The position numbers and the translations under genes are program-made. A stretch of DNA of 4,046 nucleotides from a virus (lineage: Duplodnaviria; Heunggongvirae; Uroviricota; Caudoviricetes), in IMG/VR virus record IMGVR_UViG_2698536339_000020. The stretch is one strand, 5' to 3'. Positions 1 through 3,851 of the stretch are shown in pieces (within the stretch, counting starts at the first letter, position 1; the number at the start of each line of letters is the position of its first letter). The notes beneath the pieces are model-generated. The model made no database searches. It had not been told where the DNA came from and saw only the letters and a list, made by a program, of their open reading frames with translations.

Positions 1-540
1 ATGAATCCGTTTAACGCCATTACTTTTGCTGCATTGTGCGGGCCTCTGGCTTGTCCTGCTGCTATGGCGCAGGAGTTCATCATCCAGCCAGCCCCTGTGA
101 TTGCTAAACCTTTTGAGTACTCTCCTTCTGTTGAGGAATTCTCACGCAAAATGGAAGAGGGTAAGGAGATCTTGCAAAAGTTAACAATTGCAGCAGATGA
201 CTACTATATCTGTTTGATTGATCTTAATAGCCAAGATGCTCGCGAGTTTGTTTCCAAAAACGGGACAGATACGACAGAGGCATGCGAAATGTTCCTGCGT
301 GCTTTTGAAGAAGAAGTGAAGCGTACAATTGAATCGCCTCTACCTGAATTTATCAGGTCAGAACTGAAGGTTTACTGGCGTCATATTGCTAAAGCTCGCT
401 CATCTGTCACTCGCCTTAACAATTACATAAAGAGCATATTTAAAGAAACTGTTACTTTTAGCGGGCGCGCGGATCTTGCTGGAATTGCAGCACTAGCTAG
501 TCACACATCAAATAAGCTAAAATCGATGCAATTTCACTAA
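1..540 (+). CDS. Hypothetical protein with hydrophobic, signal-peptide-like N-terminus; candidate partner of the downstream YafO-family toxin; may be 5'-truncated by the window edge
   Basis: Frame is open from nt 1 (ATG) to TAA at 538-540. The N-terminus MNPFNAITFAALCGPLACPAAMA is an uncharged hydrophobic stretch ending in an AxA-like AMA; no K/R n-region is visible, so the true start may lie upstream of the window. The remainder is charged and helix-like. No family recognised by eye. The stop is 16 nt before the next gene start, suggesting one operon. Confidence 0.6.
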   Translation: MNPFNAITFAALCGPLACPAAMAQEFIIQPAPVIAKPFEYSPSVEEFSRKMEEGKEILQKLTIAADDYYICLIDLNSQDAREFVSKNGTDTTEACEMFLRAFEEEVKRTIESPLPEFIRSELKVYWRHIAKARSSVTRLNNYIKSIFKETVTFSGRADLAGIAALASHTSNKLKSMQFH

Positions 541-556
541 CCGATAGCGGACGGCC

Positions 557-991
557 ATGCATCTAGAAGTCTCTATTAATCCAGAAACTAGAGCTGAATT
601 TTTTGATGAAGTTTTTCTCAAATTCCCGGAGCTAGAGTCTTCTATCATTGATGATTTCAAGAGATACAAAGCAACCGGTGAGCTTCCGCACTATTTCGGT
701 AGGGACGTTGCGTATACTCAGCCTTATGGTGCTTTTCGGGCTGGGTTGATGCATATCCATCTTTGTCTACCGCCAAACAAGTTTCCCGAGAAACTTCCAC
801 AACCGGATAGGGTCTGCAAGAAAGGTGATCCTGATAATGATGCTTGTCTTGTGTATGTCCAAGGTGAGCTTTATGAGAATAAATATTCACTCATTGCTAT
901 TATGTATCCCGATGCACATGAAAAAGCAAGAAAACATGATGTGATGAGCTATCTGGCGCGAATTGCCCAGAATTATAAAGATGAAAACTAA
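557..991 (+). CDS. Type II toxin, YafO family (ribosome-dependent mRNA interferase-like)
   Basis: The 144-aa translation carries the blocks I recall from E. coli YafO: YK(A/R)(T/D)GxLP..FGRD..Y, then HIHL followed by a proline-rich stretch (LCLPPNKFP), then D-A-x-LVY-x-QG, then LIAI..P(D/E)(A/P)H(E/K)(K/L)AR. ATG at 557 is the only start before residue 65; the upstream SD is weak (GGA). TAA at 989-991 is followed immediately by a terminator hairpin. Confidence 0.8.
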   Translation: MHLEVSINPETRAEFFDEVFLKFPELESSIIDDFKRYKATGELPHYFGRDVAYTQPYGAFRAGLMHIHLCLPPNKFPEKLPQPDRVCKKGDPDNDACLVYVQGELYENKYSLIAIMYPDAHEKARKHDVMSYLARIAQNYKDEN

Positions 992-1326: not shown

Positions 1327-1899
1327 TCATAATTCTGTGCTGGTGGCAGGAATTAATTTCTGCCAGATAGCGGAAACATATTTTGCCTGATGACGGGCAT
1401 CAGCCAGGGCGTTGTGCCGTTCGCCATCGAAAGGCATGTCCATTTTGGGGTCGAATCCGATGGAACACCCAAGCGTAACGATCGTGCGTACATCGTGGTC
1501 ATTCCAGTATGCCCACGGGCAGATTTGTCCTGCTCGCTCATAAGCTCCACGTAAAATTACGTTGTCGAAGGTGGCTCCGTTACCCCAGACTTTTAAATAT
1601 TTCGTATTGTCTGCGTGCCGGTTAATGAAATGATTTAGTTCTGAGAGAGCATCGCTGATCGACAAAGTATCATCAATACAGATTGCAGCTCGTGCTTCAG
1701 GGCTTTGTTTCAACCACCACAGGATGGTATCGCCGTCAGGTGTAGCTCCTTGCCCCATAGCACTTTCCAGGCTAACAACCGTATAGAATTCTTGTCCGAT
1801 GTCTCCGGTTTCTGGAGTGAAGAACACCGCGCCAATGGAAACGATCGGTGCATCCTTATTTTTCCCCATCGTCTCAAGGTCGATCATTAAGTTATTCAT
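1327..1899 (-). CDS. DEDDh-family (DnaQ-like) 3'-5' exonuclease, phage-type
   Basis: 190-aa ORF with an N-terminal Exo I-like motif MIDLETMG...APIVSIGAVFF and a C-terminal Exo III-like motif HNALADARH (H-x4-D), typical of DEDDh exonucleases. Strong SD GAGGTG is 5 nt upstream of ATG 1899-1897. The start overlaps the upstream gene's stop (TAATG). Confidence 0.85.
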   Translation of the reverse strand: MNNLMIDLETMGKNKDAPIVSIGAVFFTPETGDIGQEFYTVVSLESAMGQGATPDGDTILWWLKQSPEARAAICIDDTLSISDALSELNHFINRHADNTKYLKVWGNGATFDNVILRGAYERAGQICPWAYWNDHDVRTIVTLGCSIGFDPKMDMPFDGERHNALADARHQAKYVSAIWQKLIPATSTEL

Positions 1900-2210
1900 T
1901 ACTTCACCTCCTGCGTTTCTTTGCTGCTGTGAATTCGCCAGTTACCGACGCCTTCCCATTCAAACTGGCGGTTACTAATTCGCGTCCAGCCCCTGCCGAA
2001 AAGCAAATCCAGATACCAGTATTTTAAAGTTCTGATAATTGCTCTTACAGTTGGTTTGCATCCAGAAGTCTTTGATGCGCAAATAAAGCACCGAGTTATG
2101 CTCATGGCCTCTACAAAAGGCCAGATAAACCAAACCCAGATGCAAAGAGCCACGAACAACATGAGCGCGATGTTAGCCACTAAGCCAGACCAGTACAGAT
2201 AATTACTCAC
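1899..2210 (-). CDS. Small hypothetical membrane protein (single N-terminal hydrophobic helix, Cys-containing C-terminal part)
   Basis: 103-aa ORF. The first possible start after the in-frame stop is GTG at 2210-2208, preceded by SD GAGG with a 6-nt spacer (AAAGAGGCAACCAGTG). Hydrophobic segment LVANIALMLFVALCIWVWFIWPFV, then CFICASKTSGC. Stop TAA overlaps the exonuclease ATG. No homolog recognised; the coding call rests on the RBS, the coupling and the operon context. Confidence 0.5.
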   Translation of the reverse strand: MSNYLYWSGLVANIALMLFVALCIWVWFIWPFVEAMSITRCFICASKTSGCKPTVRAIIRTLKYWYLDLLFGRGWTRISNRQFEWEGVGNWRIHSSKETQEVK

Positions 2211-2691
2211 TGGTTGCCTCTTTCATAAAAATAATCCAGTGGGTTTTATCGTTTTTTCCTGTTCGTTGACCGATAACAGGTTTTCTGTCTGTCAGTGCCA
2301 AAATCTGGCTTACCGGTATTTGCGTTTCATTCCATTTAAAAACCAGAACACCGTTTGGCCACAACACACGAAAGGCTTCTTTAAATCCCTGCCGCAAATC
2401 ATCACGCCAGGTATCTTTATTCAGCCGTCCATATTTCTTTCCCATCCAGGCGTTATCACCAACACGCTCAAGATGCGGAGGGTCGAATACAACAACCGGA
2501 AACGATGCGTCTGCAAATGGTAATGCACGAAAATCTGCTATCAGGTCAGGGCTAATTATCAGGCGTCGTCCATCACATAATGTGTGCTCTTCCTTTCTGA
2601 TGTCGCTAAATATCGCCCGGTCGTCATTCTTATCGAACCAGAACATGCGACTGCCACAGCACATGTCGAGGATTGCTGCATGTCCAGTCAC
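2203..2691 (-). CDS. Small SAM-dependent methyltransferase with (D/N)PP(Y/F/H) amino-methyltransferase motif; probable phage orphan DNA methyltransferase
   Basis: Motif I-like AAILDMCCGS near the N-terminus and motif IV-like VVVFDPPH about 55 residues later. The likely start is GTG at 2691-2689, preceded by a textbook SD AGGAGG (2703-2698) with a 6-nt spacer and overlapping the upstream stop (GTGA). The longest ORF runs to ATG at 2724, 37 nt inside the upstream gene, with a weaker RBS. Stop TAA at 2205-2203. Confidence 0.8.
   Translation of the reverse strand: MTGHAAILDMCCGSRMFWFDKNDDRAIFSDIRKEEHTLCDGRRLIISPDLIADFRALPFADASFPVVVFDPPHLERVGDNAWMGKKYGRLNKDTWRDDLRQGFKEAFRVLWPNGVLVFKWNETQIPVSQILALTDRKPVIGQRTGKNDKTHWIIFMKEATSE
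2207..2220 (-). promoter_or_regulatory. Second copy of the same 14-nt junction motif (GAGGCAACCAGTGA) serving as RBS + GTG start of the small membrane-protein gene
   Basis: Minus strand reads GAGGCAACCAGTGAGTAA: identical 14-mer to 2688-2701, with the GTG start at 2210-2208 and the methyltransferase stop TAA at 2205-2203. Confidence 0.5.
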
Positions 2692-2703
2692 TGGTTGCCT
2701 CCT
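2688..2703 (-). promoter_or_regulatory. Ribosome-binding site / translational-coupling junction (AGGAGG-N6-GTG overlapping upstream TGA)
   Basis: Minus strand reads AGGAGGCAACCAGTGA: SD, 6-nt spacer, GTG start of the methyltransferase, and the stop TGA of the upstream gene overlapping as GTGA. Confidence 0.55.
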
Positions 2704-3209
2704 TTGCGAATCTGCTCCGCCCATTCTTCAAGGGATTTCTCCGCATATTCACCGGACAGGCCATCAATCGGATGCGGTTCATTAGCTAACTCTTCTTTCG
2801 CTGACAGAATCATGCGCGTAACGTCGAAAACTTCACGTAAAGACTTATTGATAAATCCGTGGTTGAAAGCTGCAGCAAGACGACTTGCGGTATAGTTAAT
2901 TCCCTCGTTGCGAGCCTCCGCACGAATTTCAGCCAGAAAAGCATCGGTGGCTGGAATTTGCGGCATACCTCCGCCTGCTGCGCAGATATACGCATCAGAT
3001 ATTTCATCCTGCTCGCCATTAAACACATAGCAACTCTGTACGATAAATTTATTCAGCCGCGCATTCTCCGCCGCCAGCGTCTCGCATTTAGCTTCAAGCG
3101 CGTCGAACTTACGTACTAGGTACTCAGCATTTGTTTCGTTCACTTTCAGATCTCGCGGTACACATTTCCCGCGAAGAAACCCTTCCATTTCGAAAACATT
3201 CATGCGCAT
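2688..3209 (-). CDS. Hypothetical phage protein with a predicted N-terminal coiled-coil region; possibly Ead/Ea22-like (weak)
   Basis: 173-aa ORF. ATG at 3209-3207 has SD GGAG 8 nt upstream. Coiled-coil-like segment EYLVRKFDALEAKCETLAAENARLNKF, Gly-rich CAAGGGMPQIP, acidic C-terminus. The start overlaps the stop of the upstream HD gene, and the stop overlaps the methyltransferase GTG start. Family assignment is not secure. Confidence 0.7.
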   Translation of the reverse strand: MRMNVFEMEGFLRGKCVPRDLKVNETNAEYLVRKFDALEAKCETLAAENARLNKFIVQSCYVFNGEQDEISDAYICAAGGGMPQIPATDAFLAEIRAEARNEGINYTASRLAAAFNHGFINKSLREVFDVTRMILSAKEELANEPHPIDGLSGEYAEKSLEEWAEQIRKGGNQ

Positions 3210-3736
3210 TTGCGTAACTCCGATAACTCGTTAAAACGTTCCATAAACATCCCGTAGGCATGGCCTGGTGACAGTGGAATAACTTTGAACATCTCTGTTG
3301 CCGGGATGCCTTCCAGTACAGGCCAGAAAGAGCCATCATCAAGCCCGAGATCGCGGCGTTCGGTTGCCAGCATGATGAGATCGGCATATTTCACGGGTGT
3401 ACTCATAACTGGGGGTAACCCGTATTTCTCACGGATTACGGCGTCTATTTTTTCTTCCATCCGTTTATAGTCAGGAAGAAGGCGTTTCAGTGGTGCGGGA
3501 ATGTCCTGGCAATACGCTTCTGTTGCATCATGCATTAACGCTTCAAAAGCAAATTCCTGCGGCACCAGCTGGCTGCAAAGCACCGCATGTTGGGCGACGC
3601 TGTAGAAGTGTGAAAGATGACCGGCAAAGCGACAGATATTTGAAAGGGAAACCGCGATATCGTTAATATCGATGTTGTCTTTATTTATCCTGTCATAATA
3701 AAAATGCTTCCCGGAAAAAGTTTTAATAAATGACAT
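3200..3736 (-). CDS. HD-domain phosphohydrolase (YfbR-like 5'-deoxynucleotidase family)
   Basis: H..H...HD...D signature (GHLSHFYSVAQH ... LMHDATEAYCQDIPAPLKRL) resembling E. coli YfbR ([20 protein letters not shown]). The likely start is ATG at 3736-3734 with SD GGAGAA 5 nt upstream. The longest ORF starts at GTG 3766 with no RBS. Stop TGA at 3202-3200. Confidence 0.8.
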   Translation of the reverse strand: MSFIKTFSGKHFYYDRINKDNIDINDIAVSLSNICRFAGHLSHFYSVAQHAVLCSQLVPQEFAFEALMHDATEAYCQDIPAPLKRLLPDYKRMEEKIDAVIREKYGLPPVMSTPVKYADLIMLATERRDLGLDDGSFWPVLEGIPATEMFKVIPLSPGHAYGMFMERFNELSELRKCA

Positions 3737-3829: not shown

Positions 3830-3851
3830 AAATGCCCCCGCAGGGGCATTT
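3830..3851. other. Perfect 9-bp inverted repeat (hairpin) in the intergenic region, not followed by a U-tract on either strand
   Basis: AAATGCCCC (3830-3838), loop CGCA, GGGGCATTT (3843-3851). Lies between the stop of the partial ORF (3864) and the HD-gene start (3736). The flanks are not T-rich, so it is not a canonical intrinsic terminator. Confidence 0.5.

Follow-up and report, generated by a model that had tools for sequence, protein, structure and literature searches.

The window analysed here, a stretch of 4,046 nt of Caudoviricetes DNA (IMG/VR record IMGVR_UViG_2698536339_000020), carries a series of adjoining minus-strand genes, and two consecutive junctions between these genes are formed by the same 14-nt sequence, GAGGCAACCAGTGA, the core of the linker described below. 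Over the 631 nt that were compared, the window is 100% identical to a prophage of Escherichia coli elppa4 (NZ_CP083512), and its relatedness is mosaic, extending to many lambdoid, Shiga toxin (Stx)-converting and P22-like phages. The region is the early-left 'ea' operon of the prophage, the equivalent of exo-xis; in phage HK620 its counterpart genes are found downstream of pL, with the recombination genes on one side and xis/int on the other. The features at the two junctions, and at the boundary that follows them, are:

2688–3209, minus strand: upstream Eae-family gene, 173 aa, ending in ...EEWAEQIRKGGNQ*, with linker copy 1 as its last codons
2702–2714, minus strand: upstream linker extension (CAGATTCGCAAAG), 13 nt, encoding ...QIRK
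2688–2701, minus strand: linker copy 1 (GAGGCAACCAGTGA), with the Shine-Dalgarno (SD) sequence GGAGG (AAAGGAGG with its flank), a 6-nt spacer and the GTG at 2691–2689
2203–2691, minus strand: methyltransferase gene, 162 aa, a single-gene cassette between the two copies, 481 nt from copy to copy
2207–2220, minus strand: linker copy 2 (GAGGCAACCAGTGA), with the SD sequence GAGG, a 6-nt spacer and the GTG at 2210–2208 of the next open reading frame (ORF)
1899–2210, minus strand: ORF for a 103-aa membrane protein, starting at the GTG of copy 2
1897–1915, minus strand: a second, different boundary sequence (…GCAGGAGGTGAAGTAATG) at the TAATG stop/start overlap of the membrane ORF and the exonuclease gene

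The first-pass annotation of this DNA had reported the 14-mer on the minus strand at 2701–2688 and 2220–2207. Both exact copies were found, and no further copy occurs elsewhere in the window, even with two mismatches. The 14-mer is the longest exact direct repeat in the window and extends to 17 nt at 94% identity when its flanks are included. In context, copy 1 reads AAAGGAGGCAACCAGTGACTGG and copy 2 reads GAAAGAGGCAACCAGTGAGTAA. That each copy supplies the SD sequence GAGG, the 6-nt spacer CAACCA and a GTG start can be read directly in the sequence, and the different upstream reading frames noted at the two copies are equally evident. The 173-aa upstream ORF (3209–2688) ends in GGC AAC CAG TGA (KGGNQ*), its TGA at 2690–2688 overlapping the GTG at 2691 as GTGA; the methyltransferase gene ends in GAG GCA ACC AGT GAG TAA (…KEATSE*), with its stop codon TAA at 2205–2203, 4 nt past copy 2. 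Both junctions thus have the layout of coupled genes, in which the SD sequence lies inside the upstream gene, 6 nt from the start, and the stop codon overlaps or adjoins the start codon. Together with the 13-nt extension, copy 1 forms a patch of about 27 nt that is shared by the junctions read in the first frame (...[A/E]Q[L/I]RKGGNQ*), and the conserved ...CAGCTTCGCAAAG tail seen in the junctions listed for relatives supports this extension. The RNA at the two copies is not significantly stable (folding z = +1.07 and -0.28), no inverted repeat or hairpin was found at either copy, and neither strand of the window contains a sequence complementary to the motif. An exact direct repeat of at least 14 nt appeared somewhere in 4.8% of 1000 dinucleotide shuffles of the window, so that the repeat on its own is only marginally unusual. 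Chance is excluded by the identical register of the copies at two successive start codons and by the reappearance of the motif at junctions in relatives.

This recurrence was followed through viral-contig loci, which are the matches listed and include many near-identical prophages; the counts given here are not frequencies. At least 120 viral-contig loci, four annotated relatives and the window together held 135 exact copies. In 101 of these, the upstream side is an open frame of at least 35 codons, and an ORF that is likewise no shorter than 35 codons begins at the GTG of the motif. After the shared ends had been trimmed, the partners among the copies listed could be grouped into protein families, about 15 upstream and about 21 downstream, which were joined in 32 combinations; this clustering is rough, and at least one upstream cluster (U1) was put in the wrong frame by the longest-open-frame rule, RefSeq giving the KGGNQ frame for its member mEp460 gp30. 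All pairings of the upstream clusters U0 and U2 with the downstream clusters D0 and D1 were present, and likewise all pairings of U0 and U2 with D0 and D7. Such four-gamete configurations are a signature of exchange at the junction.

Two further samples were chosen independently of the motif. A 23-mer inside the methyltransferase gene listed 59 loci, which together with the earlier loci and the window gave 63 junctions, 62 of them scored. The sequence GGAGGCA[A/G][C/T]CAGTGA was present at the 5' junction of the methyltransferase gene in all 63 junctions listed, which represent the loci whose contig includes this junction, and it sits there behind at least nine different upstream sequences. 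The second sample was anchored on codons 4–11 of Ea22-like genes and comprised 125 junctions listed; the exact 14-mer was the commonest form (42 of 125), about 38 more junctions differed from it by up to two mismatches, and the family as a whole accounted for about 64%. The motif is the dominant junction of the region and not an obligatory one.

In many contexts the shared sequence is longer than the core, about 27–60 nt. An extended linker of 61 nt, composed of the upstream tail, the motif and the 5' end of Ea22-like genes, was found in 361 phage records, covered to at least 80% in 250 of them and with a best match of at least 99% identity in 138; its length suffices for ordinary homologous recombination. 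In HK620 the linker is located at the hkaH/hkaG junction. Among bacterial references with one genome per species, an 18-mer gave 23 matches, about the estimated chance level, of which only the two in Escherichia were relevant, and the linker is for this reason regarded as confined to enterobacterial lambdoid phages. Its consensus is AAAGGAGGCAACCA-GTG-A, and it belongs to the early-left 'ea' operon of Escherichia and Shigella lambdoid and P22-like prophages. The 14-mer is conserved in relatives: many homologous phage regions carry it at their junctions, with mosaic breakpoints at its edges.

The breakpoints were located by aligning the window to all fetched loci. Alignment ends piled up at window positions 2688 (n = 10) and 2206–2203 (n = 38), and in loci with other upstream genes the alignments started at 2714 (n = 14) or 2708 (n = 2), that is 7–13 nt upstream of copy 1. 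The two copies and the 13-nt upstream extension have their edges at these positions. In complete E. coli genomes, many matches covered only positions 1–93 of the query, from the upstream gene through the end of copy 1, and others covered positions 1–577. Further matches were restricted to positions 79/88–580, corresponding to the cassette alone, and here the gene followed a DUF977 gene in a different type of prophage. In one such locus, from E. coli 13P484A (L181), the methyltransferase cassette stands directly after the DUF977 gene in an early region of the cro/ydaT type; it ends with GAGGCATCCAGTGAGTAG and is followed by non-coding DNA.

Filled and empty sites were both present among the relatives. 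The Stx2c phage EH0430 (L003) has the order upstream gene, motif, methyltransferase gene, motif, Ea22-like gene, and in the Stx2a phage WGPS2 (L002) and a further locus (L062) the same flanking genes are joined via one copy of the motif. The latter two loci equal the former minus exactly 481 nt, and on their one linker copy the alignments of the two flanks share 17 nt. Segments bracketed by two copies of the motif numbered at least 63 in the fetched loci and fell into at least 21 families, among them small ORFs of about 80 aa, Ea22-like genes and a PAPS-reductase-like (3'-phosphoadenosine-5'-phosphosulfate reductase-like) gene. The methyltransferase cassette has no promoter-like or terminator-like site of its own on the minus strand within or flanking 2203–2724. 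Comparison of the loci shows that gain, loss and replacement of genes have taken place exactly at the linker. The first-pass annotation had offered two readings of the repeat, a reused coupling cassette and a footprint of modular recombination. The former agrees with the presence of the motif before the starts of at least 21 downstream families, with the 4-nt GTGA overlaps in RefSeq and with the restriction of the start to GTG or ATG; the latter agrees with the breaks in homology at the motif edges and with the presence or absence of the methyltransferase gene as an exact 481-nt unit. The evidence supports both, and they describe one thing.

Comparison of the junctions further shows that conservation acts on the nucleotides and not on the encoded peptide. 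The motif is read in two upstream frames, ending either in …(R)KGGNQ* (with the TGA of GTGA) or in …EATSE* or …EATSEQD*, and the second frame is used by at least seven unrelated upstream families. In many relatives an additional G (GGAGGGCAACCAGTGA) shifts the methyltransferase gene to the first frame (…KEGNQ*) and leaves the motif otherwise intact. AAC to AGC, the variant seen most often, changes the amino acid in the KGGNQ frame, and the synonymous third positions of KGGNQ are nearly invariant, with one AAC-to-AAT change in the 63 junctions listed for the methyltransferase gene. In the Ea22-like sample, motif positions 11–13 alternate between GTG and ATG only, the behaviour of a start codon.

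Two observations on the 3' junction of the methyltransferase gene may be added. In L129, L183 and about 20 other loci the single-G insertion changes GAGGCAACC to GAGGGCAACC and the C-terminus from …KEATSE* to …KEGNQ*, turning an 8-nt overlap into a 4-nt GTGA overlap. In prophages of the O157:H7 type the 3' motif has decayed (ATAGGCATCCAGTGAGTAG), and the gene often contains an internal stop codon and is annotated as a pseudogene by the Prokaryotic Genome Annotation Pipeline (PGAP).

The longest ORF of the methyltransferase gene begins at ATG 2724, and a start at GTG 2691 had been proposed instead. This proposal was borne out by loci that lack any upstream start, by the PGAP call and by the starts of the PHROG profiles. 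ATG 2724 is located inside the codons GAA GAA TGG GCG (…EEWA…) of the upstream gene and was found only where that particular upstream gene occurs (40 of the 62 loci listed). The methyltransferase frame closes 5–28 codons before the GTG, with no in-frame ATG, GTG or TTG, in 21 loci, and in the remaining one the sole upstream in-frame start is a GTG 21 nt upstream. In the 100%-identical genome, the PGAP coding sequence (CDS) WP_021563902.1 corresponds exactly to 2203–2691, with 162 aa from the GTG, and in strain RM9088 both junctions are annotated by PGAP as 4-nt GTGA overlaps. The profiles phrog_11564 and phrog_7811 begin at residues 2–3 of the GTG-start protein (for phrog_11564, residues 2–93 on profile positions 2–93). 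Behind the DUF977 gene, too, the methyltransferase gene begins at a GTG that is part of a GTGA overlap; its N-terminus is diverged there (MSAPATILD…). Motif I (…ILDMCCGS…) is preserved only if translation begins no later than GTG 2691; judging from the architecture of class I methyltransferases, initiation at codon 10, the next in-frame ATG, would cost the protein the AILD strand of this motif. GTG 2691 is thus the predicted start of the gene. The product matched phrog_954 ('DNA methyltransferase') over residues 3–161 with E = 1.7e-88 and carries a DPPH motif; its Pfam matches were weak and below threshold, a sequence search against the PDB gave no meaningful match, and PGAP names it a class I SAM-dependent (S-adenosylmethionine-dependent) methyltransferase. 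The cassette gene is accordingly described here as a putative class I SAM-dependent DNA methyltransferase.

The 103-aa membrane ORF that starts at the GTG of copy 2 has no CDS in RefSeq or PGAP in the source genome, where it falls into the gap between the methyltransferase and exonuclease CDSs. A tblastn search returned 620 phage records with 35–42% identity, 612 of them covering at least 80% of the query, and the alignments listed mostly begin at residue 1. Homologues occur in phages of Salmonella, Escherichia, Klebsiella and others, and residues 1–97 align with profile positions 2–98 of 100 in phrog_2531. These matches mark it as a real gene of a widespread phage family. In this way start codons are assigned to two genes, that of the methyltransferase (GTG 2691) and that of a conserved membrane protein missed by RefSeq in the source genome (GTG 2210); start calling by the longest ORF was misleading in this region.

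In our view the 14-mer is probably the core of a short gene-boundary linker that serves both translation initiation and, as a patch of homology, the exchange of gene cassettes. The linker provides a complete initiation region within the last codons of the upstream gene, with a strong SD sequence, a 6-nt spacer and a GTG, the upstream stop codon overlapping the start (GTGA) or lying 4–10 nt beyond it. Ribosomes that finish one ea gene could restart on the next, and translational coupling by reinitiation at the GTG probably operates at these junctions. At the same time, the identical ends of dozens of unrelated genes would offer a patch of identity for homologous or relaxed recombination, at which the host RecA or phage annealases could bring about the in-register exchange, deletion or insertion of entire genes, and a newly arrived neighbour would automatically inherit a working start signal. 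In the window, the methyltransferase gene is a cassette between two copies and the membrane gene a cassette attached at copy 2. The homology available to a crossover would amount to 14–17 nt at minimum, rising to about 27 nt where the …CAG(C/A)TTCGCAAAG tail is included and to about 60 nt at junctions of the Eae/Ea22 type. Many gene pairs that are unrelated in other respects have the linker in common by descent, and the crossovers presumably occur within the linker itself.

Several points weigh against this explanation. Coupling and GTG initiation are deduced from the sequence. About one third of the Ea22-like junctions are unrelated to the motif, and the viral-contig samples are redundant, so that their counts cannot serve as frequencies. 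For a deletion between copy 1 and copy 2 of the window, the sole homology is 14–17 nt. RecA or Red normally need roughly 25–50 nt of identity, and such a deletion is expected to be inefficient because the available stretch falls below this length. Breakpoints at the motif edges would be equally expected if selection kept those illegitimate joints that are viable at gene boundaries, and their co-location with these boundaries does not prove the crossover mechanism. In orthologous contexts the motif also mutates at about the rate of its flanks, as in GAGGCAGCCAGTGA of O157, giving no sign of unusually strong purifying selection. The literature on recombination, in turn, supports the proposed mechanism: lambda Red efficiently recombines sequences that are 22% diverged (PMC2327257), and Clark et al. 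2001 are cited in passages of PMC2327257 and PMC3029335 for exchange at 'flanking, short and conserved sequences'.

A bolder proposal, which we regard as possible and rather unlikely, is that the linker has been selected as a 'universal adaptor' that makes the early-left operon an integron-like cassette array without a dedicated site-specific recombinase. Annealases such as Red, RecT, Erf and Sak4 would swap genes in register on very short homology, and genes that end and begin with a 14–18-nt initiation region would be expressed immediately by translational coupling. If true, this would explain the extreme turnover of accessory genes in the region. A more conventional account attributes the joints to illegitimate recombination followed by selection, and the similarity of the junctions to convergence on a good combination of SD sequence, spacer and start codon, leaving the motif as a translation signal only. 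This is the prevailing model of phage mosaicism (Juhala 2000; Hendrix), as far as it is summarised in PMC3029335 and PMC2327257, and it would accommodate both the third of Ea22-like genes with unrelated junctions and the shortness of a 14–17-nt identity. Convergence, however, would account for a fixed GGAGG and start codon; it would leave the spacer CAACCA, the flanking AAAG and the trailing A unexplained. Nor does illegitimate joining readily explain why the same 14–18 nt lie between about 15 × 21 unrelated partner families, why empty and filled sites differ by exactly one repeat unit, or why the patch extends to about 27–60 nt in many contexts, and we consider this account improbable.

The repeat could also be a consequence of protein homology, the motif encoding the C-terminal peptide (…RKGGNQ) of paralogous upstream proteins. 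Many upstream Eae-family proteins do share a homologous C-terminal region (…AAQLRKGGNQ), and phrog_28257 matches the last 54 residues of the upstream protein of the window. However, the two copies in the window are read in different frames (KGGNQ* and EATSE*), and seven or more upstream families that are unrelated use the second of these; an indel of 1 nt shifts the methyltransferase gene from one frame to the other, with the nucleotides retained; and the common variant is non-synonymous where synonymous sites are near-invariant. Conservation at the protein level is thus highly unlikely to be the cause. We give just as little credit to a cis-regulatory operator common to several ea genes, through which a translational repressor or small RNA would control them jointly; such an operator would be compatible with the linker function favoured here. 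The regulons of repressors that bind ribosome-binding sites, e.g. T4 RegA, are analogous, and the occurrence of one to three near-identical initiation regions per operon is circumstantially in line with such control. Against it stand the lack of a complementary sequence on either strand of the window, the lack of a conserved RNA structure around either copy, the failure to identify a candidate regulator and the absence of the linker from one third of comparable junctions. Least credible of all are a chance repeat, a target-site duplication of a mobile element or an integron-like attC site of a site-specific recombinase. A repeat of this length is found in one of about twenty shuffled windows (4.8%), and direct repeats around a gene superficially resemble an insertion, but the motif also occurs at about 100 junctions listed in other phages without the methyltransferase gene, no transposase, integron integrase, inverted repeat or hairpin accompanies the copies, and the cassette is devoid of its own promoter or terminator.

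A gene-boundary linker of this kind is a clear case of a known class and not a novel kind of element; the class is that of the 'linkers' or 'boundary sequences' of lambdoid phages (Susskind & Botstein 1978; Clark et al. 2001). These boundary sequences (Susskind & Botstein 1978; Clark, Inwood, Cloutier & Dhillon 2001) are likewise short, conserved and located at gene or module boundaries, are likewise flanked by non-homologous modules in different genomes and are proposed as sites of homologous exchange. The present linker shares the defining properties of conservation at a gene boundary, different flanking modules and homology that begins or ends at the sequence, and HK620, which carries it at hkaH/hkaG, is the phage of Clark et al. 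2001. It differs in having many partners on both sides (about 15 × 21 families) and in bracketing single-gene cassettes in series. The exact motif was not found in the searchable texts of papers, a search that did not extend to the junction list of Clark et al. 2001. A comparable arrangement is known from the mycobacteriophages Island3 and Brujita, in which repeats of about 50 bp bound a segment that is present or absent, a difference ascribed to general recombination and likened to exchange at boundary sequences (PMC3029335). Presence or absence of a segment between short direct repeats is common to both cases; Island3 and Brujita have one pair of repeats of about 50 bp, and the linker measures 14–17 nt (about 60 with flanks) and is reused across the phage population. 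Linkers have been hard to find at most phage joints (PMC3029335).

The junctions of the window also resemble other genetic arrangements. The likeness to coupled junctions extends to the SD sequence, which sits 6 nt before the start within the 3' end of the upstream gene, to a stop codon that overlaps the start or lies within 10 nt of it, and to the setting in a long polycistronic phage operon. Translational coupling via overlapping stop and start codons (ATGA, GTGA, TAATG) is known, for example, from gene pairs of the trp operon and from genes of the lambda nin region. Ordinary coupled junctions are specific to one gene pair, in contrast to the linker, whose 14–18 nt are common to many unrelated pairs and are read in two upstream frames. 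Integron cassettes are likewise promoter-less single genes arranged in series with a recurring short boundary and an upstream promoter. The attC site of integrons, however, is an imperfect palindrome that forms a hairpin, which is lacking at the linker copies, and no integron integrase domain was found among the ORFs of the window or in the annotated neighbourhood in the source genome; what recurs here is an initiation region, and exchange is proposed to proceed by homologous recombination, either general or mediated by annealases. Like morons (Juhala et al. 2000) and other accessory insertions, the methyltransferase cassette consists of a single accessory gene that is exactly absent in some relatives. 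Morons have their own promoter and terminator and sit between genes, whereas the cassette has neither and is fused to its neighbours by start/stop overlaps.

The origin of phage mosaicism is still debated between random illegitimate joining followed by selection and homologous exchange at short conserved linkers. The junction described here is an unusually clean and abundant case of a linker, which makes the linker hypothesis of 1978 directly testable in E. coli prophages. The principle will not surprise a specialist in phage genomics; the abundance and exactness of the linker and the variety of its partners on both sides make it a good experimental handle. It may also be used as an anchor for cataloguing the accessory genes of the ea region in Stx and other lambdoid prophages.

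The boundary between the membrane ORF and the exonuclease gene has its own recurring sequence, …GCAGGAGGTGAAGT(A/G)ATG with a TAATG or TGATG overlap, which was found in 38 loci. At least three unrelated upstream genes (the membrane ORF, a DUF551/EaA-like gene and others) were joined there, always to the same exonuclease gene, and homology to relatives resumes at window position 1915 (n = 21). This junction (…GCAGGAGGTGAAGTRATG) thus differs from the 14-mer linker in that its partners vary upstream only, whereas those of the linker vary on both sides.

The upstream Eae-family gene matched phrog_614 over the full length of its 173 aa with E = 3e-78, and the match to phrog_28257 corresponds to the last 54 residues of the protein. 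The ORF is intact, but its PGAP annotation is confined to a 5' fragment of 135 nt, which is called a pseudogene. Compared with the 116-aa Eae form of Stx phages, it contains an in-frame extra segment of 171 nt (window 3102–2932) that has coiled-coil character (a weak HALZ match). The Eae protein family is itself internally mosaic. A T7–T9 tract about 30 nt upstream of the linker in genes resembling mEp460 gp30 was considered as a frameshift site and rejected, as no consistent pattern emerged: in L004 (about 3580–3600) and similar loci, a T8 tract coincided with the 80-codon frame in six of nine cases, and a second long open frame overlaps the tract.

The remaining genes of the window are the following:

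minus strand: gene for an HD-family 5'-deoxynucleotidase (yfdR-like)
minus strand: gene for an Rv2179c-like 3'-5' exonuclease
minus strand: gene for a PrtN/Xis-like protein
plus strand: YafO-toxin pair, convergent, after the minus-strand genes

The YafO-family toxin gene (557–991, plus strand) and its 179-aa upstream partner (1–540, plus strand) are convergent to the preceding genes and lie at the end of the prophage. The partner is without a Pfam match; the annotation of phage PhiR40_1 calls it 'YafM antitoxin', that of PGAP hypothetical. No integrase is located between the Xis-like gene and the end of the prophage in the source genome. A partial fragment of a tRNA-dihydrouridine synthase gene adjoins the YafO pair (L180, 6483–6587). 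The PrtN/Xis-like gene and the YafO gene, which converge, are separated by a strong hairpin at 990–1007 (AACCCGCCGAAGCGGGTT) that has T-runs on both strands and resembles a bidirectional terminator. A further GC-rich hairpin (GCCCCTGCGGGGGC, about 3838–3851) is found at the right end of the window, after the truncated upstream gene.

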